Below, piece by piece: positions 15,342 to 48,200 of a stretch of DNA of 64,000 bases. Source of the stretch: Anaerolineae bacterium (GTDB lineage: Bacteria > Chloroflexota > Anaerolineae > Aggregatilineales > UBA3940). Both the position numbers and the translations under genes were made by a program. Positions within the stretch are counted from its first letter, which is position 1; each line of letters starts with the position of its first letter. Below the pieces are notes generated by a model. The model ran no database searches. It had not been told where the DNA came from and saw only the letters and a program-made list of their open reading frames with translations. The DNA lies in NCBI GenBank assembly GCA_016926985.1, contig JAFGNO010000093.1, forward strand, positions 2,933 through 66,932, in the 5' to 3' direction.

Positions 15342-15468
15342 TCACACCCCACGCGCCCCTTCTATCCAATGGTCACCACAATAGTAAAAACCGACCGATT
15401 ATCCACCTGCATACCATGCCTTTTCTTCCATCGCTTGCGATCGCGCCGGTCCGATTTGTCCCCATCCC

Positions 15469-16018: not shown

Positions 16019-16388
16019 TGGGTTTCTCCCTGATATCAGTTTATGGCTGAACAGCCAACTGCAAAAATTGGGTACTATTCTTTTCATGTAGCACCTTTAC
16101 AGTGAAAAGGTTCAAAATGGTAGACCTCATTTCAATAGGGCGTCTATCGTAGAAAAAATAATCCGCACAGATTTTGGATAGTTAAGAGGAGAAAGTCACG
16201 GCAGCGCTTGCCAAAGCAGCACCTGCCCGTATACAACAAGAAACATGGATGAGCTGGATAAGCAGGGTGATATTGTGAATCCACACCGCAATTCGGGTTC
16301 TAAATCCCCTGATGAAACACTGTTGGATGGGAATAGGCAGCCGATACTATAGGCGTAATCTTATCGAAAATGAAGTTGTCAGTCTCAT

Positions 16389-17669
16389 TTATTCCTGAGT
16401 TACATTACCATCTTCAGAAACCCATAGAAAGCTAAAATTGGCAGCTATTTTGAACCATTGAATCTCCTGCTTCAATCTGTGATAAGTAGGGAAGTCGGGG
16501 AGAGCTACAAAGAGGACCGCTCTACTGTTTTCCTGACGATATCGTATCATGTCATACACTGCAGCCTTAAACCAGTGTCGTGCTTGGGGAGCTAACCTGG
16601 TTCTGACAGTTCCTTTTGGGTAACCCTTCACGGTCACCCAGGCGTTTTGCTCATCAAACACTGCTTCTATATCTTTTCCTCTTTGTCGTGATCTGGTATC
16701 GGCTACTGACCGGATGGTGTATTCATTCAAGACCAGATACTCGACGATGCGAGACTGGATATTACCTTCCCAGAACCACGGTTCTTTTTCAGAATCGCAT
16801 GAATAATTGGCCGTCTCAATTTTCGTTGTATCTCCGATCCAAAAATTAAGAATTTTTCCCTCTCTCTTTTCGCGCTTAACTAATCCTTCTTTAGCTAGAT
16901 CACGACAGATTGAATTTGCTTGCTGTCGAAAGTTAAACCCCAGGTTTAAGGCAAGTTGATCATCATCAAGTCCACCTGAATGGGATTGGAGATGCTCAAT
17001 TACTCGCTCTCGTTGTTTCATCATCAGCTCCTTATCTACAGATTCGGTTGTGATTTTTCCGTTCTCATCTATCCACTTGAAGCAAACGAAGGGTATGTTA
17101 AGAAAGGCTCTTCTCAATAATGAATACCTGCGCCACGCTTCGCAATCAGGTAATGCAATAAAACCAACAGGAGATGAGTGAGAGAGAAAAGAATTGTTAT
17201 ATAAGTCGGAGATGCAATCGAATATTTCAACTACTTCAAACATACTATCAATCTGACATCCATGCTTTTCATTCGATGAATCTAGGTTATCCACCCTAAA
17301 CCCACGGTTTAGTTTACAGCCAACCACAAAGACTTCAAAATAAGGTATTCTTGAAGAACCAACAATCATACGGTATATTGGAAAACTGGCAGGTTGCCAA
17401 AAATCAGTTACCTGGTATCCGTTTTCCAAGAAAGAGAGCCTTAGTCTATTACGCAAACCTCCGACAGAATACCATAGGGGATTATGCAGATCCCCACTCC
17501 AATAGTACCTGATTCCAGAACTGTGAACCTCATGATGAATGTACTCTGGGTCTAATTTTTCAATATACATCCTCGCAGCCACTGAGGATATATTGAATTC
17601 CTCAGCAATTTGATCTGCATCAAATCCGCCATATATATTCTGTATGCGATTTTTAATTTTTTCTAACAT
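16389..17669 (-). CDS. two-wHTH protein with C-terminal PD-(D/E)xK-like nuclease domain
   Basis: 426 aa, AT-rich. DADQIAEEFNISSVAARMYIEKL and DDDQLALNLGF..ICRDLAKEGLVKRE (wHTH). C-terminal RQRGKDIEAVFDEQNAWVTVKGYP (D.E...K). Confidence 0.5.
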   Translation of the reverse strand: MLEKIKNRIQNIYGGFDADQIAEEFNISSVAARMYIEKLDPEYIHHEVHSSGIRYYWSGDLHNPLWYSVGGLRNRLRLSFLENGYQVTDFWQPASFPIYRMIVGSSRIPYFEVFVVGCKLNRGFRVDNLDSSNEKHGCQIDSMFEVVEIFDCISDLYNNSFLSHSSPVGFIALPDCEAWRRYSLLRRAFLNIPFVCFKWIDENGKITTESVDKELMMKQRERVIEHLQSHSGGLDDDQLALNLGFNFRQQANSICRDLAKEGLVKREKREGKILNFWIGDTTKIETANYSCDSEKEPWFWEGNIQSRIVEYLVLNEYTIRSVADTRSRQRGKDIEAVFDEQNAWVTVKGYPKGTVRTRLAPQARHWFKAAVYDMIRYRQENSRAVLFVALPDFPTYHRLKQEIQWFKIAANFSFLWVSEDGNVTQE

Positions 17670-18035
17670 GAGAGAATACCTTCAATACTAAATATTCTTT
17701 CAAATCAAAATCCCACGTCGACTAGAATTTAGCATGCCTCAATTTTTCCTAATAAAACTAACGGTTGTAGCTGAACCCAAAAAACGTAACTTGGTATTGT
17801 TCCCTCCAAATGTATCACTTTTTATTAATCCGTCCTATAAAAACGGAGGTTTGAAGGGATTTTTTCAGCGTAACCCAAATCTCAAATAACGGGCTTAAAC
17901 ACGAAAAGGGTCGTAAGGCAGACTTCCTTTATCCATTTCTTGATGAGGGTTCCATTCAGAAAGCTCTACCACACTTCTCGCTGTTTCTGCAGAAAAGCTC
18001 ATGGTTACGGATACCTGGAAACATGGTTCACTTCC

Positions 18036-27112: not shown

Positions 27113-28615
27113 ATGCCCATTCTGACCGAAGCTGACCAGACCCTGCTGCCGCTGGCACTCAGAGAAAACAAAGGCTGTGTCACTGCGTCGGAATGGTATT
27201 TCGGGCAGACGCCGATGCCGCTGCAGTATGCCTTTCACCAGATCCTGGTCCCGAACGTCACCTACCTGGCCGGCATCGCCGCCGGAAAAACCACCGCCGT
27301 GGCTCAATCCTACACCCTGGACTGCATCAGCATCCCGCATTTCAAGGCCCTCAACACCTCCGTTACCTCCACGCAGGCGGAGCTGGTGTTTGAAATGATC
27401 AACGGCTGGATTGAGACCAACGACCACCTTGCCCACCTGGTAGAAGACATCAGCCTGCGCCCCTACCCGGTCATCCTCTTCAAGAACTATTCCGAATACC
27501 ACTTCCGTACCGCTGGAAAGGATGCACGCTTTATACGCGGCCAGGAATATGACCGCATCAATTACGACGAAGCCGGACTGGATTACGCCGGGGTGTCTCT
27601 GCAGACCCTGCGCGGCCGGTTGCGCGGCAAGCGCCCGGACGGGAACACCCGCATGGCACGCATGGACGTGACCACCTCCCCGACCGACGCCCCCTGGCTG
27701 GAGCAGCGCTTCAACCGCGGCGTCAAAGACCATCCCACGGCTGCCCTGGAGATGTACCGGTCCATCCGGGCGACCATCTATGACAACACGCACCTCACAC
27801 CGCAGCAGGTTGCCCTGATGGAGGCGGACTATACCGATGAGATGATCGACGTGGAGCTGCGCGGATTATTCCCCAAATACGGCCTGACCATGTTCCCGCG
27901 GGAGCATATCGATGCCTGTACCGACATGGAACTGAACGACCTCATGACCGAAGCCATCCGGCCAGAGACCGGCAAACCCCAATCCGGCTACCGGTACATC
28001 GAACACCCGCGCTACGGGATCACGCATTTCGAACTCCCGGCGGAAAAACAGGGACGTTATATCCTGGCCGGTGATCCCGGCATGGGGGACCCGCCCAAAC
28101 GTAACGCACCGGTTGTATTGGTGGCCCGGATCGACCGGGAACCGTGGGACATTGTGTATTTTGACTGGGTGTATGGGCGCGGGTCGTATAAGCCCTTCCT
28201 GAATTCCTTCAAGTATGCTATCGAAAAGTACCAGCCTGTGCTCCGGGGACTGGATGCCACCGGCACGCAGCGGGCCATTGAGGAACTGGCCTTTGAAAGT
28301 GAAGGCATCGTCGTGGAGGGGTTGAATTTTCAACGGGACAAGGACGCCATGATCAATGCGCTGTCTCTATGCATCACCGGGCACCGCTTCCGCTGGCCGG
28401 TGATCCGTGGCCTGATCAATCAGATGCGCACCTACAAACGGGAAGAAGACAAGAAGCTGGCCCAGGATATTGTGATGACCCTGGCCGAGATTGCGTTCCT
28501 GGCCCGCTGGCTCCCGGAGGAGATGGGGGCAGACGTTGCCTACACCCGCGCCGGTGCCTTTCGTAACCGCAAGCAGCGCACCACCATGGGCCGGCGGGGA
28601 AGGACGAGGAGGTAG
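27113..28615 (+). CDS. terminase large subunit
   Basis: 500 aa. Walker A LAGIAAGKTTAV. Acidic motifs YDRINYDEAG. Lies between HNH and (across the island) portal. Confidence 0.8.
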   Translation: MPILTEADQTLLPLALRENKGCVTASEWYFGQTPMPLQYAFHQILVPNVTYLAGIAAGKTTAVAQSYTLDCISIPHFKALNTSVTSTQAELVFEMINGWIETNDHLAHLVEDISLRPYPVILFKNYSEYHFRTAGKDARFIRGQEYDRINYDEAGLDYAGVSLQTLRGRLRGKRPDGNTRMARMDVTTSPTDAPWLEQRFNRGVKDHPTAALEMYRSIRATIYDNTHLTPQQVALMEADYTDEMIDVELRGLFPKYGLTMFPREHIDACTDMELNDLMTEAIRPETGKPQSGYRYIEHPRYGITHFELPAEKQGRYILAGDPGMGDPPKRNAPVVLVARIDREPWDIVYFDWVYGRGSYKPFLNSFKYAIEKYQPVLRGLDATGTQRAIEELAFESEGIVVEGLNFQRDKDAMINALSLCITGHRFRWPVIRGLINQMRTYKREEDKKLAQDIVMTLAEIAFLARWLPEEMGADVAYTRAGAFRNRKQRTTMGRRGRTRR

Positions 28616-28617
28616 GG

Positions 28618-28881
28618 ATGCCGGTGTACACCTATGTCTGCCCGCAGTGCAGCCGGGTTTTCGATGTCGAAAAGTCGATGACGGCGCCCCACCCTGTTCA
28701 CTGTGAGGACTGCGGGTATCAAGGTCCGTTGATGCGACGCTTCAATCAACCTTCAATCAAGTACAGATGTTCAGGCTTCTACACCACAGACAAGAAACTG
28801 GACACGTTCGTTCCTGGCTATGACGGGCCGGATGAAGTGACGTTGATGGAGATGGGGGAGGATGTGCCTGGGGAGGGGTGA
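28618..28881 (+). CDS. FmdB-family zinc-ribbon protein
   Basis: MPVYTYVCPQCSRVFDVEK...HCEDCG. Contains palindrome copy 10. Confidence 0.8.
   Translation: MPVYTYVCPQCSRVFDVEKSMTAPHPVHCEDCGYQGPLMRRFNQPSIKYRCSGFYTTDKKLDTFVPGYDGPDEVTLMEMGEDVPGEG
28657..28674. repeat. 18-bp palindrome family copy 10
   Basis: GTTTTCGATGTCGAAAAG (inside the FmdB gene). Confidence 0.9.
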
Positions 28882-28884
28882 GGA
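28813..28884 (+). repeat. 72-bp direct repeat, copy 1 (3' end of the FmdB gene)
   Basis: CCTGGCTATGACGGGCCGGATGAAGTGACGTTGATGGAGATGGGGGAGGATGTGCCTGGGGAGGGGTGAGGA. 69/72 identical to 30068-30139. Confidence 0.95.
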
Positions 28885-29050
28885 GACGCTGAAACGCGAT
28901 AATAATCCCTAAATGAAAAAATTCTTCAGCTGATTTATGAACTGGATCACTAAATCGTTGTTCAATGGAGCGAACCATGCTAGGATCGAGTGTGTCTTCA
29001 CGGCAGTTCTACCGCGATGGCTAATAATTACGGTGTCTAGTTTACTAATT

Positions 29051-29818
29051 ATGGATCACATACCTAATAACCAAAGAGTAACCCAAAGAAACTTTCTACA
29101 ACTCTTTTTTGGATCTATTTGGGGTATTATCCTATCGTCATGTAATTTTCGTATAAGCACTCTAACACCTACTATTCAAAACACCAAGACACCCGCTCCT
29201 GAACCATCCAGCCCCCCCTCCCCCAGGAATACCTCAACGCCTACCAAGACCCCATCTCAAACCCCTACACACACTACAATACCTACTCAGGATTACTGCA
29301 AAACCGAGGTTGTTAATGATCTGAATCGGCTTGTCTCCACATTATCAGATCAAAACATCTTGTATCAAAACGAAAAAGGAGATCATCCATATTCTGATGG
29401 AACACTATACATAAATGTTGGGGATTGGGAAGTAGAGATCAATAATCAAATATTGGAATATATCGAGCAGTGCGATTTAGAGTTAGCCCTTCTTGAAGAA
29501 ATCGTAAATGAGTTCAGGCTCTTTGAAATTACCAATCGTGATGGTGACTTGATTCTCAACACCCGATCCGCTCCCATATCGGGTCCAAACCAGGGAGAAG
29601 GTGAATATTCGATCGCTTTCACGGGAGGAATTGGCAGGGTATTTTATCTGGCTGTCTTAGTTCAAAGAGAATGGATACCTGTTGAGAATTCTGAGATCGC
29701 TTTTGGATTTCTGATCGCAAAACCAACCAACAACCCTGACGAAGGCGATGCTGGGGGAAGTGGCAGCACAAGCGACACTAACAATACTAGTAGTTGGAGT
29801 TCCACGAGCGATCAGTAG
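29051..29818 (+). CDS. lipoprotein with Pro/Thr/Ser-rich linker
   Basis: From MDHIPNNQRVTQRNFLQLFFGSIWGIILSSC (lipobox LSSC). The ORF is open from 28937. Confidence 0.55.
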   Translation: MDHIPNNQRVTQRNFLQLFFGSIWGIILSSCNFRISTLTPTIQNTKTPAPEPSSPPSPRNTSTPTKTPSQTPTHTTIPTQDYCKTEVVNDLNRLVSTLSDQNILYQNEKGDHPYSDGTLYINVGDWEVEINNQILEYIEQCDLELALLEEIVNEFRLFEITNRDGDLILNTRSAPISGPNQGEGEYSIAFTGGIGRVFYLAVLVQREWIPVENSEIAFGFLIAKPTNNPDEGDAGGSGSTSDTNNTSSWSSTSDQ

Positions 29819-29911
29819 TGGACCCATATAGTTGGACACTTATTGAGGCATCCTTATGGGGATGCATTATACTGAGTAATAAGCGAAAATTCAGAATACC
29901 GTGGATTTTAA

Positions 29912-29992
29912 GCATACCTCCTGTTGCCTAATCATGAGCGTCCCCATCAGGCATTGGATTATAAAACACTGGCAGAAATTTATTTCTGTGTT
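29912..29992 (+). pseudogene. remnant of a DDE transposase/integrase C-terminus
   Basis: LPNHERPHQALDYKTLAEIYF matches the conserved YN..RPH.aLgy.TP.e tail of rve-domain transposases. Only about 27 codons are present. Confidence 0.6.
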
Positions 29993-30067
29993 GACGGGGG
30001 ATCTAATGTTGGGTTCCCCCTAAACCTTTATGGAGCACATAAAGTCCAGCTAGTTCGGGTTGCCTCA

Positions 30068-30139
30068 CCTGGCTATAACGGGCCGGATGAAGTGACGCTT
30101 ATGGAGATGGGGGAGGATGTGCCTGGGGAGGGGTGAGGA
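30068..30139 (+). repeat. 72-bp direct repeat, copy 2 (orphan FmdB 3' end)
   Basis: Encodes ...PGYNGPDEVTLMEMGEDVPGEG-stop with no zinc-ribbon part upstream. Confidence 0.95.
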
Positions 30140-30223
30140 AACTGGGAGGCCAAGGTTTCCAGCGGCAATAGATTATGCCTATCGTAACCATCCGAATTGC
30201 CTTGCTGCATTAGTCTTTACCGT

Positions 30224-31798
30224 CTAATATCTTGCATTTGTAATTCTGGATAATGCTTTGTAGAAATCTTCCTCATCAATCATCAAGTTGGTAGTATCAA
30301 TTTCTTCAATTTGTAGCAACGCAGAATTAAGATCAAAGCTTCTGCGAATGCAATTATATGCGCCTTCACGAGCAACGAAGGCGATATCGGCACCAGTAAG
30401 GCCAAGTAATTGATTGCTTAATTCCTCAATATGGATATTCGGTGAAAGAGGCATTCCTGATATGCACTTAGAAAAGATATCAAAGCAGCCCTTCTTGGTA
30501 GGTTTCTTTACCTCGATATGGTAATCAAACCTCCCTGGTCTCACCAATGCTTGGTCTAGTAACTCTGGACGATTGGTTGAGCCCAATACTCGAATATTCC
30601 CATAATTCTCAAGACCGTCCATTAATGATAGCAATTGATTAACAAAACGCGAATCTAATCTAAGGTTTTCTTCACCTGATCGTTGTTGAGCAATGGAATC
30701 AATTTCATCAAAGAATATTATTGCTGGTTCCAATTCTTGAGCCTCTTCAAAAATCATACGAAGATTTTTCTCAGATTGCCCATGATACTTATTGAGTAGT
30801 TCAGGGCCTTTCACACCGATAAAGTGTGCATTAATTTCATTTGCAATTGCTTTGGCAATCATAGTTTTGCCACACCCTGGAGGACCATAAAGCAATATCC
30901 CTTTATGAGGGATAATTTTCATGTATTCAAACAGGTTTGGCTGCTTCAACGGTAATTCAATTACTTCTCTAATTGTCCCGATGATCTCATCTAAACCACC
31001 GATATCCTCAAATGATACCTCTGGAATATCCCGTTTCCTCTTTTCGCGCAGCTCTGTTTCAAATGAAATTCTTCCAAATGAAATTTGTTGTGATCCATTG
31101 TCCACTTCTTCCTTTTTCGGTTGAATTCCTGTAATTTTCTCTTCAATTGTGTAGCCATCGTCAATTTCTTGTCGCTTCAGCTCAAATTGCTCATCGGTAT
31201 TCGGATCGATTTCATTCGGCAACTTAGACAAGATTATGTCTATATTATCTACATCAAAATACGGGCAAAATGAGAGTAACTTTGATCCTGCTTCATCAAC
31301 TAGGATTTCCTTAATCTTCTCTTTATCGATTTGCCATTTCTCGTTGCTGAAACTGCCAAAGTCGTACCAAATCCTTCCATTGTACTGACGATAACCCCAA
31401 GAATTCGTGGGATGATGATATCTATTTATGGACACTAGATGTCTACATTGCCAGCCTTCCTTAATATCTTGATCAATGTAACAATACTTTGCTCCTAAGT
31501 AGTTCATCCCAGATGCACAGGACATAGTATTTTTTAAGTTCCGTATTTGATCTGACGAGGCAGTATTTCCATTTATGAGAATTTCCGTTCCTTTCCAATT
31601 TTGGATCATTTCATAGATAATTTGGAATATTTGATAATGCTCGACGAATTGGGTGCTATCAAATTCAATTGAATTTGTCTTTGAGCTTTCAGTAAAAGTG
31701 TATGTATCAAATTTCTTACACATCCTAATAACTTTTGGATAATTTTGTGAACTTGATTTTGAAAACCTAAGTGTAACTAGAAAATCTGATTTATCCAT
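30224..31798 (-). CDS. classical-clade AAA+ ATPase (CDC48/FtsH-like module) with an unknown ~260-aa N-terminal domain
   Basis: [20 protein letters not shown] (Walker A), [12 protein letters not shown] (Walker B), [20 protein letters not shown] (SRH / Arg fingers). Confidence 0.88.
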
Positions 31799-32096
31799 TT
31801 TCAGAACCTCGGAACCTAAGTAAGTTAAATAACTTTAGCTGAGACGCACGAGCTCATCAACTCAAGTTTTTCAGATTGACACTTTAGCTCAATCAACTGT
31901 CAACCGCTGCAGATCCTCAACTACAATCTGAAAACATCATAGAGACGAGACTAATTGTATAGGTGCCGGAATTATTGCCAAACTCAGTTTCAGCAACAGG
32001 AATTCGACCCAATTTTTTAACCATCTCCTAAGTAACTCGTGCGGTCTGATCCTGATAGCCTTCTACCTAACTATAGGCAACGTTAGAGGAGCCTTT

Positions 32097-33065
32097 TCAA
32101 ATATTTAATAAAGGTTTTTCAAAAAACCATAACGGACTCGATGGGACTTCATAATCTGAAATGTCCTCATGAAGAAACCAGGTAAGCAGCTCTCTTAATG
32201 CCTCCATCGCGTTCTTAGTAGATGGATAGTCATTCTCCGCATTATGAGCCAGATCATTTCTACTCTTTCTTGCCTTGTGAAGTCTATCTGCCAAATCCTC
32301 AGAGAAAATACCCGCCGTAAGTAATATTTCTGTCTGAATAGCAGCTGTGTAAGTTCTAGTATCCTTTAATCGATTTAACCGGTTCTTATTTTCAATTTCA
32401 TCACGATACTTCCTCCATTCATGAGCAATAAGTTGTTCACATGCAATCCAAGAATTAAGGAGGGAAGTGTCAAGATGATATCTTGAGAACGATGAATAAG
32501 CAGTAACGATGAACGCAGGCAAGCTTAAAGAAACGGATTCGAGTTTGGTTGCAAGATCTAAATTAGCGACTTTATAAATGATCTCAATACTGGAATTTAA
32601 GGAGGTCCACATAAGTTCGTCTTCTTCATTTTTGCGACTTGAATCAAATGGCGCTAGATTATAGCTAGGCTTGAAAGACACTGAGGGGTAGAGGATAGAA
32701 ACATGACCATTATGTATTTCGCCAACACAAAGGCGAGATGGAGTAGCAGCCTCAGAAATCAATCCGTTTAGTGTCAACTCACAGATTAGACGATTCAGTA
32801 GTCTGCAGGAGTTATGTTCAAAATCGAGTTGCAAGTTCAGATAATCTAAATTTAGATGTCCCAAATCATTCTCCCTTCGACCTAATAGATCATCGGGGAT
32901 AGGAAGGAATAATCCTCCCATTGCTGTGATGTGGATTCGATAATCGGAGTTAACTGCAACTGTTCTAATAATTTTGTGAGCGCTTTTTGGGTTTTCAAGA
33001 TTGACTTCAGTTAAAAATGTGAGTGGATCGAGATAAGTTCCGATGAAATATTTCGCTTGGTTCAC
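32097..33065 (-). CDS. HEPN-domain protein (Abi-like), unknown N-terminal domain
   Basis: C-terminal helical region with LHKARKSRNDLAHN (Rx4H HEPN motif). Confidence 0.55.
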   Translation of the reverse strand: MNQAKYFIGTYLDPLTFLTEVNLENPKSAHKIIRTVAVNSDYRIHITAMGGLFLPIPDDLLGRRENDLGHLNLDYLNLQLDFEHNSCRLLNRLICELTLNGLISEAATPSRLCVGEIHNGHVSILYPSVSFKPSYNLAPFDSSRKNEEDELMWTSLNSSIEIIYKVANLDLATKLESVSLSLPAFIVTAYSSFSRYHLDTSLLNSWIACEQLIAHEWRKYRDEIENKNRLNRLKDTRTYTAAIQTEILLTAGIFSEDLADRLHKARKSRNDLAHNAENDYPSTKNAMEALRELLTWFLHEDISDYEVPSSPLWFFEKPLLNI

Positions 33066-33258
33066 GCTGTCACTCCGATTTACAAACTCATAAATATAAC
33101 CTAACAGTTATAGTTACTGGCATGCCTGGTACTTGCTGAAAAGATACAAGATAACGATCTCATAATTGATATTGAAACCTGAAACCCCAATAGTCAAAGC
33201 ATCGTCGAGACAATTCCTTGGTATGTTGTTATGCGAAAGTTGATTGTTCACCCAGCCA

Positions 33259-33417
33259 TTATTTTGGCTTGCTTGGCCTAGGTTTCGGTTTTTCGGGCGG
33301 TGGGGCTGGGACCCGTTGACCTTTTATTGCGTCATTGCCACTACCGATTTTTTTATCAGGAGTACCGGTTTTCTTTTCCTCCAGAAATATTGCATTTGGT
33401 TTCCTTCTGAGTAACAT
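33259..33417 (-). CDS. 52-aa Lys/Pro-rich peptide (candidate)
   Basis: TAGGAG RBS overlapping the upstream stop. MLLRRKPNAIFLEEKKTGTPDKK...PPPEKPKPRPSKPK. Confidence 0.35.
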   Translation of the reverse strand: MLLRRKPNAIFLEEKKTGTPDKKIGSGNDAIKGQRVPAPPPEKPKPRPSKPK

Positions 33418-33425
33418 TTTTACTC

Positions 33426-33827
33426 CTAAAGGTTTGAGTGTGTAAAAATTGCAGCGAAAATTACGCCCACTACAAATAAAATACCGCCTAATGCATTCAA
33501 AATGCCTGTGAGAATATCCTGCCATCCACCAGGATGATTATCATAAATTTTTTCTATATCAACTTGCTTAATCGCCTTCCTCAATGCCCAATTGCTGGAG
33601 TAGAAGGATAATAAAACAATAGAAATGCTTATAGCCCATAAAATCCAAGCCACTAAGATGTAATTGGGATTGACTACTGAATTGCTGCCAATAATGTCTT
33701 TTATAAATGCAAAGGTAATTCCTAACGCGCCACCCGATAACGCGATAAGGTTTTTATCGTAATCATCCTGAGCTTTTTGCTCTGCAGTCATCAAGTTTGT
33801 CCTATATTTTTCGAGTAAATCAGACAT
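33426..33827 (-). CDS. three-TM membrane protein
   Basis: 133 aa from MSDLLEKYRT (AGAGGA RBS). TM segments LIALSGGALGITFAFI, ILVAWILWAISISIVLLSFY, ILNALGGILFVVGVIFAAIF. Confidence 0.6.
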   Translation of the reverse strand: MSDLLEKYRTNLMTAEQKAQDDYDKNLIALSGGALGITFAFIKDIIGSNSVVNPNYILVAWILWAISISIVLLSFYSSNWALRKAIKQVDIEKIYDNHPGGWQDILTGILNALGGILFVVGVIFAAIFTHSNL

Positions 33828-34199
33828 TTTTTTCCTCTTGCTCGATTGGATTATCAAAAAAATCCTCCCCTTTTTAGGGAGTCTATAGCACACGAACACT
33901 TCGTCAAGATTTTAATAACCTTCGCCAAGGCAACAGAAACTGCGAGTAGAACGAGGTCCCTCAAGCTTACCTTCACTAATATGGAATCAAATTTGTCTTC
34001 CTGAATTATTCCGGAATTCAACTCATAAAGTAGCCGTTAAGCGATCAGCCCCTTCGAACTAAAGCGCTGTTATTCGTCCCAAATCCTGCTTTCTAAATAA
34101 AGAGATAGTCTCCCACCAGACAAATCGTTGCATTTCCTCGACCGATTCCAGAGTGAAGTTAGCCGGAGATGAGACGACCCAAACAAAGATCTGTGGTGA

Positions 34200-34850
34200 T
34201 TAAACAAATGCTTTAAGAAAGCTTTCAAAGCTCTGAATATGTCCGGTCTGGTCCAAACGAATTTGAAGCTGTTCTAAATATTTGGAATGTAATAAAGCTT
34301 TGGGTTGGCTTTTTGAATAAGTCAAATTCCTATATTTGTCATTCAATGCAGCAATTAGATATTTCTTCGCAAACTGAGCTCTTGACAGATCTTCTATTGC
34401 CGGTAATTGTTCAGGGTCTTGACTTCCTACATTGAAAAATCTTTGATAGGTTCTTAATCGAGAAGATTGGGAGTTTCGACGAATTATCTTTCTATTGCCA
34501 AGAGCCCAAGTCTCAAAGCAAAAATGCTGAACCACAATCTTAACTGGTACTCGACAAGGAAATTGGACTAAGTGGGACTGGATTTCCTCGTATTTTTCAT
34601 CTCTCGACATTTCTTCAGAGTCTATTGATATCACAAGCCGGTCAAAATTTGTGTGAGAATTTACATCAGAAATAGCATTCTCAATAACAGTAAAATAACG
34701 TGGGTATCCACCACCCGTTATGAGGTAGCAATCATCATTCTTAATCTCATCGATATAGTTCTTCAGAGTTAGGCGCGGATTAATTAAAGGGATCCAATGT
34801 TTATAAACCTTCTGCTCAGTTACCCCCTCAACCACAACATAGATATTCAT
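34200..34850 (-). CDS. TOPRIM-like protein (DUF4276/RloB-like)
   Basis: MNIYVVVEGVTEQKVY (conserved EG.TE start). RLVISIDSEE (acidic DxD-like). ATGA coupling to the ATPase gene. Confidence 0.55.
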   Translation of the reverse strand: MNIYVVVEGVTEQKVYKHWIPLINPRLTLKNYIDEIKNDDCYLITGGGYPRYFTVIENAISDVNSHTNFDRLVISIDSEEMSRDEKYEEIQSHLVQFPCRVPVKIVVQHFCFETWALGNRKIIRRNSQSSRLRTYQRFFNVGSQDPEQLPAIEDLSRAQFAKKYLIAALNDKYRNLTYSKSQPKALLHSKYLEQLQIRLDQTGHIQSFESFLKAFV

Positions 34851-35977
34851 TCAACACCGTCAGTATAGAAAGGATCATTAATAAGCTGAATAAACGCTTC
34901 TTGCTTAGATTTTCCAAACCTACCCTCAAGCTCTTCACCATACAATATTTGAATATCGGTACCTTTCCTATGGAATAAGTACCAGTTCCGAGAAGGAATG
35001 TCATTAATAATGTAAGGATGATGACTCGTGACAAAGAATTGAATTTGTTTCTCAAGACGAAGAATGAAATCAGGAAAAAAATCAATAGCACTAATTCCAA
35101 GTGAATTCTCATACTCATCGATGATATAGATGGAATCATCCGGAGCAGAATAAATATCAGTAAGAATTAGGAGGATTTTTTGCATACCAGAGGACATATC
35201 AGGGAGTGGAATCCAGTCCTGTTGATTTCGTTCACGAATACAAAAAACCGGTACATTTAAAGGGAAAGCTACATTAGGCGAAACTTGAGCTAAATCTCGA
35301 AAGCTGAAATCACTAACAAATGAGAATGCGATTTTAAATTGCTCTTCAATTTCGGTGAAGAGATCTGGGAAATACTTATCCATCAAATACAATGTAGTAT
35401 TCAATCCAAACCCGGTCTTGTATAAAGCGCGTAGAGTTGGTTCGTTGTCAAACTTTTGATGAAGCTCTAAACTGACAGCCTCTAAATGAGATAATCTCGC
35501 CAAATCATCATGGAAGAATCGACGTCTCCTAATATTTTCGAATCCATTGAATATTGGCTGAACAACTTCCTCCTCCCTTAATAACGAAATTGCAGTCTTT
35601 CTAGCGGGAAGTTTTGGAAGATCAGTTGAACTGAACCTAAATTTTCCTGGCCTTCGATCTACTAAAACTTGACTTTCCTCATTCCCCAATATCTCAAGTT
35701 TCTCAAAAATTATCCTAGAATCCTCATCGGGGTTTACATCATCTGTTTCAATAACCCACTTGTAGGTTATGCCTGATTGCAGAAAAGTAATATCCCACTT
35801 TCCTTGCACAAACTTGTCTGCAGCGACAAAGGAACCAAGATTAAATAAAGTATTCAATAACCGAGTCTTCCCTGTTGCAGAATCTCCAACTAACAAATTC
35901 ATCTTTTGGAATTCAACGGGAGTAAAAGACCAATGTGTATGACCCTTACCATGACATTCATATCGTAGAATTTTCAT
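34847..35977 (-). CDS. ABC-type (AAA_21/OLD-like) ATPase
   Basis: LLVGDSATGKTRLL (Walker A), MSSGMQKILL (signature), IYIIDEYENSLG (Walker B), FVTSHHP (H-loop). Confidence 0.8.
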   Translation of the reverse strand: MKILRYECHGKGHTHWSFTPVEFQKMNLLVGDSATGKTRLLNTLFNLGSFVAADKFVQGKWDITFLQSGITYKWVIETDDVNPDEDSRIIFEKLEILGNEESQVLVDRRPGKFRFSSTDLPKLPARKTAISLLREEEVVQPIFNGFENIRRRRFFHDDLARLSHLEAVSLELHQKFDNEPTLRALYKTGFGLNTTLYLMDKYFPDLFTEIEEQFKIAFSFVSDFSFRDLAQVSPNVAFPLNVPVFCIRERNQQDWIPLPDMSSGMQKILLILTDIYSAPDDSIYIIDEYENSLGISAIDFFPDFILRLEKQIQFFVTSHHPYIINDIPSRNWYLFHRKGTDIQILYGEELEGRFGKSKQEAFIQLINDPFYTDGVE

Positions 35978-36124
35978 TGCATCCTACCTTTCTAATCCCT
36001 AGGAAAAATCTGTCCAAAATAATAAGTAATTAATAAAGTCAACTTTTTTATGAGGGTCCGTAAAAATTATCTACTCTACCGAATATTGTTCTATTTCGAC
36101 TAACAAGATTGATTATTGGTTTCT

Positions 36125-36724
36125 TCAAGCAAAGATATCTGTCAACACTGACCTATTAGAATCAGTATCACCGAATACCTGTAAACCTCTATTAAGTAGT
36201 TGAGTAGTTGCATCAGAGTTCGAATACTGTTTCCTCAAAACGTTAAACATTCGCTTAAACCGTTGATTCAATTTTGGCGTGACGATTGAAAGCATAGAAA
36301 CAAGGCGGAGATCCTTCGTATATCCGTATTTAAGGTCAACAATGTTTTCTATAAAGTAGCAAAGTTCCCATTCTTCAAGTACATCAGGAGAAGGGATATG
36401 GGAAATATCGTAACTATCGATGCCTCTGTCCAAAAGCCAAAGGTTTCTATACTTTTCGAACGCTTCATCTGAAGGTATCAATGGACCCAACTCTATTAAT
36501 GTAATAGCCAAGTGAATAAGCATGTCCATTATACGATGATTAAGCCTCAAGGTTTTCCCCTCTAAATTAAGTAAAGCTGCTTTTGTTGCCAATTCGATAA
36601 CGTGAGCATGAAGGAAGGGTAAAGATCCGTTATTAAAATCCCTTTTCTTCAACAAGATGATGTCTAGCATAAAATCATCAGCTAGGCGGCCAAAATTACC
36701 AGCAACCACATCCATACTTTCCAT
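36125..36724 (-). CDS. hypothetical helical protein (HEPN-like N-terminal helices?)
   Basis: 199 aa. LHAHVIELATKAALLNLEGKTLRLNHRIMDML resembles the HEPN helix pair. No Rx4H motif seen. Confidence 0.5.
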   Translation of the reverse strand: MESMDVVAGNFGRLADDFMLDIILLKKRDFNNGSLPFLHAHVIELATKAALLNLEGKTLRLNHRIMDMLIHLAITLIELGPLIPSDEAFEKYRNLWLLDRGIDSYDISHIPSPDVLEEWELCYFIENIVDLKYGYTKDLRLVSMLSIVTPKLNQRFKRMFNVLRKQYSNSDATTQLLNRGLQVFGDTDSNRSVLTDIFA

Positions 36725-37038
36725 TGCACATCCCTAATAATGCCGAGAAAAATCAAATTCAATTTCGATACTCTGCTGATTTTATTCAGTTTGACGCATC
36801 TGGTAGTAATTTCAGAAATTATGCAGCGATTAATTCCACCTCATATTTCTCTCTGAAAGTGATTATCTTTCAGAACACATCAAATTTAGCACATCTTCCT
36901 CCATTTGCCACTTCTTCTTGAGAGCCATATCTTCTTATCAGCGATCAGAAATGGTGTTTTCATAAACTACTCTTCACATTGCAAATACCGTTCATATCCC
37001 ATATATCCATACTGTTGTATTATTTATAATCCATACGG

Positions 37039-37067
37039 TTGACCACTATTACATTCTGTGATACAAT
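37039..37067 (+). promoter_or_regulatory. promoter of the portal/structural operon (TTGACC-17-TACAAT with TGn)
   Basis: TTGACCACTATTACATTCTGTGATACAAT. Confidence 0.55.
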
Positions 37068-37176
37068 CCCAATTAAGTAGAACCACTTCTGCACAAACAG
37101 AAGCAGTTCCAAACTGCCTTTCCCCCATTTAGGCTCTACCCCCTTTTGAGTTGCAAATTCATAGTAAGGATGACCG

Positions 37177-38700
37177 ATGCTGACCTATCCCGATTATTCG
37201 GATCTCAGCATGTCGCCGTTCAGCGATGGCCTGCAGCTCCTGTGGGACCAGGCGTTCACCGAGCGGCAGAAATACCACCATTACTTCTCCGGGGAAGTGT
37301 TCCATGAACGCGTCCAGGTGGAGGACGAGGACACCCAGGGTGATCCCCCCCTGCTCTACCCCGTGGGGATGAACCTGGTTCGGACCCTGTGTGTCTCCCA
37401 ATCGGAAGCCCTGTTTGGTGAATGGGAAGATATGGTCATGCGCTTCCGGGCCCGCCAGGACGTTGCCGAAGACACCTCCACCGAAAAAGCAATCGAATGG
37501 GCGCATCAAATCCTGACCGATAACCACTTCGAGACCCTCGGCTATGAATTGGCCCTCGATCGTGAAGTGTACAAGGGCTGTGCGGTCAAGATCAGCTTTG
37601 ATCTCACCCTGCCATCAAAAATCCGGCTGTCCCGCCTGCCACTGGATTACTTCTACCCGATCTGGGACCCCGACAATCCGGACCGGCTGCTGGAAGCGTA
37701 TCTGGCCGTCCCGATGTCCCTGGAGCAGGCACGAGCCCGCTACGGGGTCAAGATGGAAAACGCCCACGATATCGTTTTCCGCGTGGAGCACTGGACCGAA
37801 ACAACCTACGAAAGCCGCCTCAATGATATCCGGATTGACGAATATTCCGGTCACAACCCCTGGGGTGTTGTCCCAATCGAATACATCCCCCGCATGCGAA
37901 CGGATGACTGGTACGGCGACAGCCTGGCAAAGGAAATCATCACGGTGCAGGATGAGCTCAACATGCGCCTGGCCGACATGGGAGAAGCCGTCAACTACAA
38001 TTCGCACCCGATCCGCTGGGGCCGGGACCTTCCCAAGCAGTTCAACGCCCGCAACTTCCCGGTCGGTGCCTTTGCCTTCTGGAACCTGGGGCGTTCCCTG
38101 CAGGACAAAACCCCTGAAGTCGGTGTGCTTGAAGTCAAGAACCCGGTCCCGAAGGAAGGGCTGGATTACATCAACTTCCTGTATGACTGGACCCGGACCT
38201 CTTCCTTCTCCCCTCCAATCGCCTTTGGGGAGGATGACGGCGGCGGTCAACGCTCCGGGCGGACGTTGCAGATCCGCATGTGGCCCCTGATCCGGGCCAC
38301 CCGCCGCAGCCGGGCCTATTTCGGCGCCGGCATGATCCGCATTCTCCATAAAGCGGCTGCCATCATGCGGCAAAAGAACCTGGGTAATTCCTATGCGACA
38401 CAGCGGGTACTGGAAGGCCGACTGGTGGCACAGTTTGCGGAAATCATGCCGCAGGACGAAGCCGCAATTGTCGACAAGGTTGTACGCCTGCTGACCCTGC
38501 CGGTGCCACCCATGTCGCTGGAAACTGCGACCAAAGAGCTTGGCTATGGCGCCCGTGAAGTGGATCGCATTCGAGCCTATCTCTCAGATGAGCTGTTTCA
38601 GGACTATCTCAACAAGAAGCCGGAAGTGTCCACCCCTGGCGAGGAAACACTGGAACCACAGGATACGAAGGATCGCAAGGCCGACCGGAACCCAGAATGA
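37177..38700 (+). CDS. portal protein
   Basis: 507 aa. First structural gene after TerL (across the island). Size and position fit. No motif verified. Confidence 0.7.
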   Translation: MLTYPDYSDLSMSPFSDGLQLLWDQAFTERQKYHHYFSGEVFHERVQVEDEDTQGDPPLLYPVGMNLVRTLCVSQSEALFGEWEDMVMRFRARQDVAEDTSTEKAIEWAHQILTDNHFETLGYELALDREVYKGCAVKISFDLTLPSKIRLSRLPLDYFYPIWDPDNPDRLLEAYLAVPMSLEQARARYGVKMENAHDIVFRVEHWTETTYESRLNDIRIDEYSGHNPWGVVPIEYIPRMRTDDWYGDSLAKEIITVQDELNMRLADMGEAVNYNSHPIRWGRDLPKQFNARNFPVGAFAFWNLGRSLQDKTPEVGVLEVKNPVPKEGLDYINFLYDWTRTSSFSPPIAFGEDDGGGQRSGRTLQIRMWPLIRATRRSRAYFGAGMIRILHKAAAIMRQKNLGNSYATQRVLEGRLVAQFAEIMPQDEAAIVDKVVRLLTLPVPPMSLETATKELGYGAREVDRIRAYLSDELFQDYLNKKPEVSTPGEETLEPQDTKDRKADRNPE

Positions 38701-38810
38701 TCCATCCGTAGCACAACAAGCAGTCATTCCAGGCCCGTCCTCCTTGGGAATGGGTGCAGCTGACAAAGGGTTCAAAGCGGGCGGACGTATGTAGTTCAGG
38801 AGAAGAGAAC

Positions 38811-39932
38811 ATGGCATTAGACGCGCCAACCATTTCCAGCATCGCGGGCACCTATCAATCAACCGCTCCCAACGGTCCGTACGGCATCCGCTACCTTCTG
38901 GAGCAGATCGCAGCCAATCTGGAAGCAGCAGAACTTCCGGACGGCATCGCTCAAAATCCAGGCCAGGTCGCCAGTGCCCGTATCCGGATTGCCAGTGCGG
39001 TGCAGGACGCCGAAACCGTCACCATCGGTACAGATGTGTACGAGTTCGATACGCACGACCCGGCGCGCCTGGCAGCAGCCACCGCCATCCGGGTCAACGT
39101 GTCCGGCGGAAGTACGGTCCAGGCACAGGGCACCCTGACCCTGGATACCCAGCCCACTGCCGGGGATACCATGACCCTTGGCACCAAGGTCTACACCTTT
39201 GTCCCGGATGGCACAGCCAATGGTGATGGGGAAATCGACCGGGGAGCAGACCTGGCAGCAGCGAAAGTAAATATTGTGGCAGCCATCAATGGCACGGATG
39301 AAATTAATACGCCACACCCGCTGGTATCAGCAGCCGATTTCTCCAGTGATGACTGTGTGATCACCGCACTGGCCGGCGGCACCGCTGGCAACAGCATCCC
39401 CAGTACGGAGACCTTCACAGCAGGGACCAATGTTTTCGACGCCGAAACCCTGGGCACCACAACTGCCGGCGTTGACCCGACCGCAGGGGAAGCATCCGAT
39501 GCCCTGATCGCCGCCATCAACACAAGCGGCACCGAAGACATCACCGCGATCGACATCAGCGCCAATGAGGTGCTGCTGGTCGGAAGCGAAGTGGGAGCCA
39601 ATACGACGGCACTGTCAGAAACCTTGGCCGGGGCAAACAACACCATCGACGCTGCCATGGCAAACGGAGAAGCCGCAGCCGATGTCATCATCTTCCAGAC
39701 CAGCCGCGTGCCTGCCGCTTCGGATGTGGCCCTGGGCAACCTGTTCTTCGCCCTGGACTTCGTTCCCGACAGTGCCCTGGCACAGGTCCGGGTAACGGCA
39801 ACCGGCGCTCTGAAAGCATGGGACGGAAAACTGACCATCACAGGGGGAGATCATCCGTACGTTCAGCTGGATAACAGCGGCTCGACTGACTGGGCTACCA
39901 CCGATACCGTTTCATTGATCGCCTTTGCATAA
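38811..39932 (+). CDS. Ala/Thr/Gly-rich structural protein with internal repeats
   Basis: 373 aa from MALDAPT (AGGAGA RBS). Repeats ETVTIGTDVYEF and DTMTLGTKVYTF. Contains palindrome copy 11. Confidence 0.6.
   Translation: MALDAPTISSIAGTYQSTAPNGPYGIRYLLEQIAANLEAAELPDGIAQNPGQVASARIRIASAVQDAETVTIGTDVYEFDTHDPARLAAATAIRVNVSGGSTVQAQGTLTLDTQPTAGDTMTLGTKVYTFVPDGTANGDGEIDRGADLAAAKVNIVAAINGTDEINTPHPLVSAADFSSDDCVITALAGGTAGNSIPSTETFTAGTNVFDAETLGTTTAGVDPTAGEASDALIAAINTSGTEDITAIDISANEVLLVGSEVGANTTALSETLAGANNTIDAAMANGEAAADVIIFQTSRVPAASDVALGNLFFALDFVPDSALAQVRVTATGALKAWDGKLTITGGDHPYVQLDNSGSTDWATTDTVSLIAFA
39432..39449. repeat. 18-bp palindrome family copy 11
   Basis: GTTTTCGACGCCGAAACC. Confidence 0.8.
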
Positions 39933-45242: not shown

Positions 45243-48200
45243 ATGGCAAGACGGAGCAAATCCAAACGGGCTTTCCTTGAAAACCGCGGTTACGAGGACA
45301 GCTCCCCGACCCGGTATGATCCCTATTCCAAGCTGGATCATGCCCGCGCGCTGTCTGCTGCCCTGCAGTATGACGGACCCTCTTCGTCTTCCTACTACAA
45401 AGCCCTGATCCGGGGGATCCAAAACACCCGCCAAGCGTTTCCGAATACCGACTTCCCGGCCCTGATGAAGACCCGCGTGGACCTCGATACCTATTGGGAT
45501 AAGGGCTGGGGGGAGCCCCCCACCAGCGTCCAGGCCGCCATGAACCGGATCATCGAAAGCCTGGGTCCATATGCTGCTCAGGTGGCCGGCAAGCAGGGCA
45601 GTAACTGGGAAAACGCCCTCTCCACGTTTTTCTACGGCAGCCGGCACGCACAGGGCACACAGCACATGGGCGTCTTCGGTGCGGTTTTCGACTACGATTT
45701 CAAACGCGGCGGAGGCATGCCCTTCACCTTCCTGGCCGATCGCGGCCTGGCTGCGCTGAAAGCTGAGGAACGCGGCGATCGCAAGGATTTCAACCCGATG
45801 GTGTTCTCCTCCTTTGAGTATACGAACGAAGAGGGGGAAACCGCCTTCGCAGAGGAGCTCCTGCACGGCACGATGGCTACGGTTGGTGCTGGAGATCCTG
45901 TCGGGAATCTCCCTCCGGAGCTCAGTTCCTACATCCAGATGCGTCAGACCGGGGAGCTGCAGTACGGCACCCGGTATCCCTTGACGTTTCCAGATACCGG
46001 GAAAGTGGTCCATGTGCCTTCGGAAGAGTTGTATACCCAGATTGACCGGGTTACAGAAAACTTCACCCACTATGACCGGTCCAGGGGACTGGACTGGTGG
46101 CCTGAACAGGGACATGGGCTCACAGCACCGATCATGAACCCCAGCATGCCTCATCTGTGGGCGCAGCAAACCCATTTGCACCGCAACGATTTCAACGCGC
46201 TGAAAGGATATTTCAGGGCCTACTCAGACCGACAGCTCGATCCGGAAGGGCTGTACCCCATCTCCATGGCGCACTACGGCTTCAGAGGCGTGCGCTACGC
46301 CTCCGGGAAACGGCTGTCGGATGCAATCGGTGTCATTCTTCACACGGCTCACGAGTTCTCCCTGGGCATCCAGCCGGATTTCAAGCTCGGTTCCGAACCG
46401 GACAACATGGACAGATTGGAAGAGACACTGGCAAGGCAACCAGACGATCTTGCCAATCTGTCGCATCATGTCTACCACGGACCAATCACATCCCTGAACG
46501 AGACCACCGGCCAGCTGGACGTCGCTCCTGGATCGTTGGACCTCGGTGTGAGCACCACCAACCTGCCGCGCCCGCGCTTTTCAGACACCCAGCGTCAGTC
46601 CATTCTGTCCAGGGCCGCTGCCGCCGGAGACCCGCGTGCTTCTGCCATGCTCCAGATGGCCAGGAATGGGGAAACCGGCCTGGAAGACATGTTCGTCAAC
46701 TGGTATCAGGAAACGATCCGCGGCGAGCATGCCGGCGCAAGACGAGTGCGATCGGACCAGTGGTACGACAACGCCTTGAGCGATCTGCAGCATCTGGGTG
46801 GAGATATCCAGCGACGAAGCGAACAAGGGTATGCGCGCGGCCAGTCGCCTGCTGCCAGGACCCTCATGCAGCGCATCATGAATTTGTACCCTCAACTGGA
46901 AATGGAAGCAGAGGAACCGGGGTATTTCCGGAACGATGCCAGCTACCGGGTTGGAAACCGGATGCAAAAGGGGTGGGACATCCATAAACAGATTGGCGTC
47001 CTGCGCAACGATTTTTATGCATGGCAGCGGGACATGCGCGAGGCCCAGGAGACGGGCCAGTTACCCACGGATGAAGTCTCAGCGGCAGGCCCCCGGCGTT
47101 CCTTTTTTCCGGATGGCCGCGCGGTCGTTGATGATTATCAGGAATACGGCTTGCCGGGGCCTGTCTCCGTGCAGGATGGCGGCGCCGGTGATCCGTATGT
47201 GGTCTCCCACCCGGTTGCCACACTTGAAAAGGATGATCCGCGCGACGACCCCATGCTGAGCAGGGATGAGGAGGGAAAACGCCGGATGGGTTCAGGCGAG
47301 ATGCTCGCGGACGCCCTGTCTGCCAACCCCGCCCAGGGAACCATCCCGCGCACCTACCACCGGGCTCTGCAGCGCCGGATGGCATCCGGGCGCTGGCCCA
47401 GGCTGAATGACGATGCTCCCTTCCGCACTGCCCAGGCTCGGGCAGCCGAACGGGTCCGGCATCGCAATGCCCAGCACAATATTGTGATTGGAAAACTGCG
47501 GTACCCCACCTCCCCATCCATGCAGGCTGCACAGGCCCGGCTCGAAGAAATGCGGGTGGAAAACGAAACGCGTACCGCCCGCCGGACCGCCCTGGCCGTT
47601 CGAAGGACCGGCACCCAGCTGGTGACAGCGAAACAGGCGCGTGCCATGCGGTTGCTCGATGGTACCGATGCACAGGAGAGGACCCCTGACACCTTCATTG
47701 CCAATGAAAAGGGCATTGTCATAAGGCAGAAGGATATGGATGATGCTGCGCGTTGGTACTGGCAGGACGCCCTCGAAGAAGAAGTGTCGATAGCTGCTGA
47801 GGAAGGTACAGGGTATCAAACCGGGCATCTCAGTGAAGACGAATGGCATCGACAGCAAGCGGGGTTGCCTCTGTCCTATCCAGGTCATCGATCCCCGGTT
47901 CGCTCTCAAAGAATCATTCGTTCTGCTCCGGAACGAACCCAAACACCGGTCCCTGCTTCTGCCGGCGGTGGGTCCGCTGGGACGTCTCCCGTACCGGTTT
48001 CCGGGGGTGCATCCGGGGGTTCCGGCGGCGGCAAGCCCCCCGGACCTCCCCTGGCTCCGGAAAGTGGTTTCTGGCACGACGAGGAGGAAGGGTCTCCACA
48101 CGAAAGCGGAGCCTCTGCCCCCGGACATCCTGATCCGTCCCCGGTCCCCATGACCGAAGAGGAACAGCAGCGCATCGCGGCACATGGACAGCGAGCCCGC

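Follow-up and report, generated by a model that had tools for sequence, protein, structure and literature searches.

A mosaic island of defence-type genes probably occupies a variable slot in the late operon of an Anaerolineae phage

Hotspots for defence genes are known in phages and their satellites, namely in P2-like phages, where the site next to cos is flanked by gpA and the portal gene gpQ, and in P4 (PMC9122126). AbiL, MADS3-4 and PARIS are grouped as systems that combine an ABC ATPase with a Toprim protein (PMC11464382). The DUF4276 and RloB families belong to the Toprim superfamily, with the same catalytic positions as are conserved in the Toprim-like protein described below (PMC12065111). 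HEC-01 is a further candidate of the ABC plus Toprim type, which gave no protection in its sole test, and embedding in restriction-modification (R-M) loci is a pattern by which defence genes are nominated (bioRxiv 10.1101/2024.01.29.577857). Here we describe an AT-rich island between the terminase and portal genes of a tailed phage, found in a 64,000-nucleotide stretch of contig JAFGNO010000093.1 (hereafter the window) from an Anaerolineae (Chloroflexota) genome bin. The island is probably a mosaic accessory ("moron") island of defence-type genes in a variable slot of this integrase-encoding phage.

The slot resembles the P2 and P4 hotspots in being a fixed site beside packaging and portal genes, in having a content that varies between relatives, and in holding cargo of the abortive-infection or defence type, including ABC ATPase plus Toprim systems (compare Old, PARIS and AbiL). 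However, both the phage lineage and the host phylum (Chloroflexota) are different, and the slot lies inside the late operon, from TerL and a Zn-ribbon gene to the portal gene. The cargo in the window is antisense and compositionally foreign, whereas relatives of the phage carry sense-strand, ameliorated genes at this site. The defence role is predicted here from the genes. Phage-borne defence hotspots near packaging genes are already well established, and some parts of the island are undescribed.

A foreign block in a variable slot

The tailed-phage late operon on the + strand of the window carries TerL and the portal gene, and three of its genes delimit the slot:

27113-28615, + strand, large terminase TerL, left anchor of the slot (Terminase_6N, 1.2e-10)
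28618-28881, + strand, FmdB-type Zn-ribbon protein of 87 amino acids (aa), last backbone gene before the slot (Zn_ribbon_8, 2.2e-8; TIGR02605, 1.2e-8; GC content 0.55)
37177-38700, + strand, portal protein, right anchor of the slot (SPP1_portal, 5e-7)

The slot between the stop codon of the Zn-ribbon gene and the start of the portal gene covers 28882-37176, or 8,295 nucleotides (nt), and has a GC content of 0.388 against 0.58 in the backbone. Values per kilobase (kb) are 0.36-0.43 over 29001-37000 and 0.54-0.60 on both flanks, with a sharp step at both slot edges. GC content at third codon positions (GC3) is 0.31-0.41 in the island genes and 0.72-0.77 in TerL and the portal gene. The slot DNA is foreign cargo of AT-rich composition within the late operon. 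Six large intact open reading frames (ORFs) in it all run on the - strand, against the late operon:

30224-31798, - strand, AAA+ ATPase of 524 aa, with an orphan N-terminal region (aa 1-245) and a single CDC48/VCP-type AAA module (PF00004, 2.8e-43)
32097-33065, - strand, HEPN-domain protein of 322 aa, with an alpha/beta region at the N-terminus and the HEPN domain at the C-terminus (RNDLAH motif)
33426-33899, - strand, small membrane protein of 157 aa from a GTG start, or 133 aa from the ATG at 33827 (PGAP, Logan), with three transmembrane segments by hydropathy
34200-34850, - strand, Toprim-like protein of 216 aa that falls between DUF4276 and RloB (DUF4276 at 2.8e-4, under the Pfam cut-off)
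34847-35977, - strand, ABC-type ATPase of 376 aa (AAA_21, 7.2e-17; AAA_15, 2.2e-9)
36125-36724, - strand, all-helical protein orf199 of 199 aa (AlphaFold2 (AF2) all-alpha; predicted local distance difference test score (pLDDT) 80, predicted template-modelling score (pTM) 0.82)

An earlier note on this DNA had described AT-rich DNA parting terL from the portal gene and six large antisense genes; the composition and the ORF calls bear out both points, including the gene order. Its gene list is incomplete, since it overlooked a + strand ORF at 28937-29818. Its statement that each gene has its own spacer of 150-450 base pairs holds for most of them (147-452 nt) but not for the ABC gene and the Toprim-like gene, which share 4 nt. 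Likewise, terminase and portal genes are normally close, but not adjacent as it supposed: relatives have the Zn-ribbon gene and 0.4-1.7 kb of cargo between them.

The relatives define the slot. TerL homologues with 52-70% identity occur in 16 loci, four from IMG/VR and 12 from metagenomes, and the portal protein is 44-51% identical to the portals of related loci, aligned from residue 1-4 on. A Zn-ribbon gene follows TerL wherever the contig passes TerL (tallied in 13 of the 16 loci), except in L004, which is the most distant relative; in three related loci the contig ends inside TerL. The following distances could be read:

L001, 1,483 nt from the Zn-ribbon gene to the portal gene
L003, 1,727 nt from the Zn-ribbon gene to the portal gene
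L023, 1,642 nt from the Zn-ribbon gene to the portal gene
L004, 418 nt from TerL to the portal gene
L019, slot of at least 2,287 nt, the contig stopping before any portal gene

All slot genes in the relatives lie on the + strand. Their cargo comprises a basic protein of 79-95 aa, an HExxH protein of about 100 aa and two kinds of DNA methyltransferases, to which L019 adds a metallophosphoesterase-like protein, and none of these slot genes is present in the window. The GC content of the slot equals that of the backbone in L001 and L003, is 0.03-0.08 lower in L023, L019 and L004, and is 0.19 lower in the window. Because the flanking core genes are kept while the content between them differs, the site is a variable cargo slot. 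This agrees with the earlier note's statement that temperate phages carry such cargo in fixed hotspots. Gene content and composition suggest that the cargo in the window has replaced the usual slot content and has not been ameliorated. Neither a nucleotide match nor a TerL-protein match was found among GenBank phages, and IMG/VR holds no close relatives of the portal protein, the AAA+ protein, the ABC ATPase or the product of the overlooked ORF (orf293). Small conserved slot genes of the relatives lie at 3479-4036 in L001, 2987-3600 in L003, 3743-4357 in L023 and 5894-6157 in L019; the basic protein of 79-95 aa carries the motif SAIKLRHHGKG, and the HExxH protein is found in L001, L003 and L023.

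The left edge of the island is more complex than the right one, with the following features:

28813-28887, 75-nt direct repeat, copy 1, in the 3' end of the Zn-ribbon gene (95% identical to copy 2)
28937-29818, + strand, orf293 of 293 aa, with a lipoprotein-like signal that begins at M39, then a linker rich in Pro/Thr/Ser and a C-terminal domain of no known family (ORF call)
29924-29990, + strand, possible C-terminal remnant of an rve-type transposase (…NHERPHQALDYKTLAEIYF…; rve_3, weak, E = 0.019)
30068-30142, 75-nt direct repeat, copy 2, at the left edge of the antisense block (95% identical to copy 1)

The two repeat copies flank the orf293 segment. From Met39 on, orf293 resembles a lipoprotein precursor (…FFGSIWGIILSSC; …GIILSSC) with one hydrophobic segment. 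It has a GC content of 0.43 and a GC3 of 0.40, matches neither Pfam nor NCBIfam, and is annotated by PGAP as just a 152-aa product. The weak rve_3 match covers profile positions 54-66 of 67, in a frame that runs into repeat copy 2.

The independent Logan assembly of SRR13394437 bears on whether the island belongs to the phage at all. One Logan contig equals 30110-38238 of the window at 100% identity: it starts inside repeat copy 2 and continues unbroken over the antisense block and the first 1,062 nt of the portal gene. The end of this contig carries 33 nt from the 3' end of the Zn-ribbon gene, so that both edges of the antisense block touch phage sequence, which speaks against a chimera. Fusion of another organism's low-GC DNA to a phage contig of high GC content during assembly or binning is therefore highly improbable, although the GC steps are sharp at both edges and the left junction passes through the 75-nt repeat, a break point of the Logan assembly. 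Also against such an artefact is a second AT-rich island at about 9-18 kb, which repeats the same pattern and is the only other stretch of comparable composition in the window. The orf293 segment is a separate Logan contig of 1,276 nt. The 75-nt repeat is a genuine assembly branch point, and because the Logan assembly breaks there, the orf293 cassette may be polymorphic in the population. The repeat is also a visible recombination or insertion scar at the left edge of the island. Inverted repeats that would convincingly bound the island were not found, and the window has no tRNA gene.

A scar of this kind raises the question of whether the island is inert. In that case, recombination mediated by an insertion sequence or illegitimate recombination would have split the late operon of a defective prophage and left it with functionless, decaying cargo. 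The 75-nt duplication, the possible transposase remnant, the 8.3 kb of antisense DNA inside a packaging and head operon, the lack of amelioration and promoter-like sites that do not exceed chance would all fit. However, all seven ORFs are intact, full-length compared with their homologues, and preserved in their catalytic motifs. TerL, the portal gene and the downstream structural genes are intact as well, and a promoter-like site and a Shine-Dalgarno sequence stand ahead of the portal gene. We therefore regard inert cargo as unlikely.

Modules of the antisense block

The Toprim-like and ABC genes, with their 4-nt overlap, are predicted to form one operon. The product of the upstream gene is an ABC ATPase, as previously proposed, with an AAA_21 score of 62.8 bits against a cut-off of 27 and intact Walker A (GDSATGKT), signature (MSSGM), Walker B (IYIIDE) and H-loop (SHH) motifs. 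Its top PADLOC matches are AbiLi (2.6e-19) and AriA (1.8e-18), and the matches to HEC-01A and mad3 are weak (mad3, 3.6e-6). The AriA-like matches fall on the generic AAA_21/AAA_15 part of the protein. The partner gives weak matches to HEC-01B (E = 0.003) and AbiLii (E = 0.018). In an alignment of four Toprim-like proteins, E8 and D77-x-[E/D]79 are conserved; three of the four match RloB (homologues at 2.4e-5), and three match DUF4276. The label TOPRIM-like, given to this protein before, thus holds in that it is DUF4276/RloB-like and keeps E8 and the DxE motif, but its DUF4276 score is below the cut-off. The accompanying label "OLD" does not hold, because a fused protein of the OLD type is absent and the partner is DUF4276/RloB-like and not of the Toprim_Old or DUF4435 type.

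Searches by tblastn place the Toprim-like partner on seven plasmids. In all three plasmids inspected (Methylovorus, Planktothrix and Acinetobacter, from three phyla), the gene directly upstream, which has the same orientation, encodes a homologue of the ATPase with 30-39% identity, and gene order and spacing of the cassette are kept. These neighbourhoods suggest that the pair is a mobile two-gene cassette, closest to AbiL. It is like AbiL in its organization as a two-gene operon, in which an AAA_21/AAA_15 ABC ATPase is directly upstream of a Toprim-like protein of about 215 aa, in its best PADLOC match, which is AbiLi, and in the E and DxD/E metal-site residues kept in the partner. It differs from AbiL and HEC-01 in that the partner in the window stays under every curated threshold. 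Other described systems fit less well. PARIS was rejected, as the partner lacks DUF4435 and the AriA of the Protein Data Bank (PDB) matches the ABC ATPase with just E = 1e-3 over 72 residues. Class-1 OLD was rejected, as there are two separate genes and no Toprim_Old match. MADS was rejected on an NCBIfam MADS3 score of 15.7 bits against a cut-off of 420; the other MADS genes are not adjacent to the pair, and neither a methyltransferase nor any other mad gene is in the island.

The 322-aa protein, which carries an RNDLAH motif, was correctly recognized as a HEPN protein. An exhaustive HMMER search collects 368 cluster representatives, mostly of 310-330 aa, which align end to end and come mostly from metagenome-assembled genomes (MAGs) of Chloroflexota. 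R269, N270 and H274 are invariant in 52 members, within the motif ARKxRNxLAH, and the N-terminal alpha/beta region of about 130-170 aa is conserved. DUF4145 is matched by 17 of the 52, and others match HEPN_Swt1, RiboL-PSP-HEPN and HepT. The AF2 model of the window protein has a pLDDT of 44 from a two-sequence alignment, so the HEPN fold is predicted from the motif and the family matches; a profile search of PDB sequences with the 52 members found nothing.

Genome loci of the HEPN family were retrieved with a hand-made degenerate DNA pattern from three motifs. The seven loci come from five MAGs of the class Anaerolineae, one Dehalococcoidales and one alphaproteobacterium, and none has an AAA+ neighbour. 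In L013 and L014, a type I R-M system has the homologue between its hsdM and hsdS genes, and in L016 the homologue adjoins a type IIG enzyme (Eco57I/TaqI_C). A Fic gene lies within about 1 kb of it in L017 and L018, with a smaller unannotated ORF between. The HEPN gene has a GC content of 0.34 in L013, L014 and L016, whereas the flanks have 0.52-0.61. The protein is thus like R-M-embedded HEPN proteins of the DUF4145 type (e.g. HEC-08) in its helical C-terminal domain, its invariant R-N-x3-H and the placement of its family at hsdM/hsdS. However, the copy in the window is phage-borne and outside any R-M operon, it has no Pfam match itself, and none of the 52 family members matches any PADLOC v2 model. 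The hsdM/hsdS loci span 683-4263 in L013 and 16-4002 in L014, both Anaerolineaceae MAGs, with inserted genes of GC content 0.30-0.38 and hsdM of 0.52-0.61. Next after the HEPN homologue in L013 come a 226-aa protein, itself bearing an RNxxxH motif (KYRNTVTHE), and an AbiEi-type antitoxin gene.

The product of the leftmost antisense gene is a classical AAA+ ATPase, as had been stated. Its AAA module covers residues 246-519 and is nearest to VAT, p97 and CDC48 (PDB entry 5vc7 of VAT, 2.8e-138 over aa 257-519). Walker A (GPPGCGKT), Walker B (IIFFDE), the pore loop (KYHG), sensor-1 and RPGRFD are intact. NCBIfam scores are 290.6 bits for CDC48, 257.5 for PAN and 124.9 for IteA, which has a cut-off of 510, and the PADLOC match is IetA (1.1e-39). 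Like Ietis, CDC48, VAT and PAN, it has an AAA+ module of the classical clade, in which the Walker A and B motifs, the pore loop and the arginine fingers are intact. It differs from CDC48 in having one AAA module instead of two, and from CDC48, VAT, PAN and IetA in its N-terminal 245 aa, which have no detectable relatives. Membership in Ietis (IetAS) was rejected: IteA is far under its cut-off, CDC48 and PAN score higher, and the island holds no subtilase or other protease gene as a partner. The sole match of the N-terminal region is phrog_16260 over aa 6-95. No match to it was found in phages, plasmid matches are confined to the AAA module, and a search of 5.8 billion proteins gave no match either, although its sensitivity is doubtful as it also missed the parent protein. 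The location of the gene in the island alone would assign it to defence.

Of the remaining genes, orf199 belongs to a family of nine proteins, itself included, with invariant H39, H41, E44, K48 and H63. It had been called a helical HEPN-like protein. The AF2 model is all-helical, but likeness to HEPN is unproven: the family has no conserved Rx4-6H motif, its lone Rx6H (R64) not being conserved, and Foldseek searches of PDB and BFVD give no significant match and none at E < 0.8. HEPN domains are among the fold matches of highest probability (4nqf, probability 0.75, TM-score 0.45-0.56), but with E values of about 2. Homologues of orf199 are solitary genes that adjoin a type IIG R-M enzyme (L007-L009), Fic (L010) or a DDE transposase (L034). 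In two unrelated contigs (L010, 4947-6243; L037, 478-1966), the homologue lies directly downstream of a HigB/Gp49-like toxin gene and a helix-turn-helix (HTH) antitoxin gene, which hints at a recurrent three-gene arrangement of HigB-like, HTH and orf199 genes. A pairing with the upstream 200-aa gene of L035 and L036 was rejected, as these show no similarity and orf199 has no consistent partner. The protein encoded at 33426-33899 has three hydrophobic segments, in line with its earlier description as a membrane protein, and no relatives of it are found in family libraries or in any fetched locus.

Reading the six genes as one multi-gene system was also rejected. The HEPN loci in seven genomes have no AAA+ neighbour, homologues of orf199 never occur with the ABC plus Toprim pair, and the plasmid cassettes lack the other island genes. 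These neighbourhoods show that the modules are independent; there are at least six of them, probably acquired recently from a low-GC gene pool.

The same neighbourhoods bear on two further explanations. The modules might be selfish addiction or toxin-antitoxin-like cassettes, whose loss kills the cell and which thereby stabilise the prophage rather than protect the host. HEPN proteins and ABC plus Toprim pairs act as toxic effectors in other systems, and homologues occur on small plasmids and also beside HigBA, RelE/ParE and AbiEi genes. The best PADLOC match of the AAA+ protein belongs to IetAS, which was originally described as a plasmid-stability system. We consider addiction rather improbable as the explanation, however, since no antitoxin-like small gene stands beside the HEPN or AAA+ gene in the window and the R-M embedding follows the pattern by which defence genes are predicted (bioRxiv 10.1101/2024.01.29.577857). 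Roles in addiction and in abortive infection can also coexist.

It is very unlikely that the genes serve the lytic cycle of the phage itself or counter-defence, such as host takeover and anti-restriction, instead of lysogen immunity. The orientation is against the late operon, most genes have their own spacers, and homologues are found in chromosomal R-M loci and on plasmids, not in structural or replication modules of phages; no close relative is in IMG/VR or among GenBank phages. On the other side stand the PHROG homologues of the AAA+ protein (phrog_30773, 2.3e-48) and the ABC ATPase (phrog_5836, 9.8e-31), and the DNA methyltransferases in the slot of the relatives, which are protective of phage DNA.

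Regulatory sites, lifestyle and the rest of the window

One regulatory site stands at the right edge of the slot:

37039-37067, + strand, promoter-like site upstream of the portal gene (TTGACC-17-TACAAT with TG, 10 of 12 matches)

This site is among the three best of the region, and a Shine-Dalgarno sequence precedes the portal ATG. The earlier note had placed a promoter that restarts the structural genes at 37039. A promoter-like site is indeed present there, but it is indistinguishable from chance sites.

The window also carries a family of 14-nt palindromes, TTTCGACGTCGAAA, with an AatII core, at 14 sites compared with 0.22 expected. As had been pointed out, the family is absent from the island: no site lies in 28673-39433, where about 1.8 are expected, so that the absence is weak evidence. 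The family avoids both AT-rich islands of the window and is restricted to the high-GC backbone. This is consistent, if weakly, with a foreign origin of the AT-rich islands. The sites span 1451-60657 (e.g. 19571, 27087, 52007 and 60657). Those at 1451, 18402, 27087, 44447 and 60657 are within 30 nt of a gene boundary, and one example lies 2 nt after terS and 13 nt before TerL. The palindrome is possibly a regulatory or methylation-related site.

Outside the slot, one gene bears on the lifestyle of the phage:

399-1280, tyrosine integrase (Phage_integrase, 1.3e-35)

A temperate lifestyle is plausible because of this integrase, and the phage is probably temperate, although no att site or host junction was identified. 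Besides the integrase, the left high-GC part of the window carries a ThiF/E1-like protein (3043-3780) and a RadC/JAB-domain protein (6338-7027), and the combination of E1-like and JAB proteins recalls the ubiquitin-like conjugation modules of some defence and phage contexts. The second AT-rich island, at about 9000-18000, has a GC content of 0.35-0.45 except for the kilobase 15001-16000, with 0.51. Two N6_N4 DNA methyltransferases stand side by side on its - strand (12375-14067), and it also encodes a 4Fe-4S-domain protein (11345-12412) as well as proteins of 564 aa and 426 aa that match nothing in Pfam; a DUF5655 protein (8320-9297) comes immediately ahead of it. This island is probably another slot for cargo or R-M-like genes. 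In the tail region, the + strand ORFs at 45243-51605 (2,120 aa) and 51885-55988 (1,367 aa) presumably encode the tape-measure protein and a tail or host-recognition protein.

Possible function and significance of the island

The reading of the island as a probable accessory island of defence-type genes rests on composition, comparative slot content, motif integrity and gene neighbourhoods. Two modules appear to be of recognised defence types, namely the ABC plus Toprim cassette and the R-M-associated HEPN family. In a lysogen, with the late operon silent, the antisense genes would be expressed from promoters of their own, and their products would counter superinfecting phages. The mechanism may be clearest for the ABC ATPase and its Toprim partner, for which PARIS, AbiL and OLD-family systems offer an analogy: on sensing a phage trigger, the ATPase would release the Toprim nuclease or activate it, leading to abortive infection. 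The HEPN protein would be a latent RNase with R-N-x3-H as its site of action. The AAA+ protein of the CDC48 type would be an unfoldase driven by ATP, with its orphan N-domain picking the substrate or the partner.

Several observations weigh against this reading. No island protein attains the curated cut-off of a named defence family, with IteA, MADS3 and DUF4276 all below, and the Toprim-like protein reaches 21.6 bits against a DUF4276 cut-off of 30.2. HEC-01, the closest catalogued ABC plus Toprim candidate, itself gave no defence in the published assay. The AAA+ protein is linked to defence solely by a generic similarity in its AAA module, and three of the seven genes (those for the membrane protein, orf199 and orf293) are without an assigned function. 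Neither promoter-like sites (23, compared with 23.4 +/- 5.1 in shuffled sequences) nor terminator-like sites (9, compared with 6.1 +/- 2.4) are enriched in the region. Lysogeny is deduced from a single gene, the integrase, and the 8-kb antisense block inside the late operon may mark a defective prophage.

The earlier suggestion that the island may include undescribed systems is a fair one: the HEPN family lies outside the PADLOC v2 models, and the N-terminal domain of the AAA+ protein has no detectable homologue. Nor are the homologues of the island genes consistently virion or lytic genes, as they are found in chromosomal R-M loci and on plasmids. That the island holds at least one undescribed defence system is nevertheless only a tentative proposal. 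The strongest candidate would be the 322-aa HEPN family, as a stand-alone RNase-based abortive-infection gene. The second would be the single-module CDC48-type AAA+ protein with the orphan N-terminal domain, as an unfoldase-based single-gene system.

The island would extend the idea of phage-borne defence hotspots, which comes mainly from enterobacterial P2/P4-like elements, to a phage of the Anaerolineae, in whose phylum we know of almost no cultured phage-host systems. The divergent ABC plus Toprim cassette, which also travels on plasmids of Proteobacteria and Cyanobacteria, is a candidate for testing, and the uncatalogued R-M-embedded HEPN family and the AAA+ protein with its orphan N-domain are further candidates. 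Current understanding is not overturned by these findings. Their value lies in a source of candidates and in a recent, non-ameliorated gain of cargo with a visible recombination scar.

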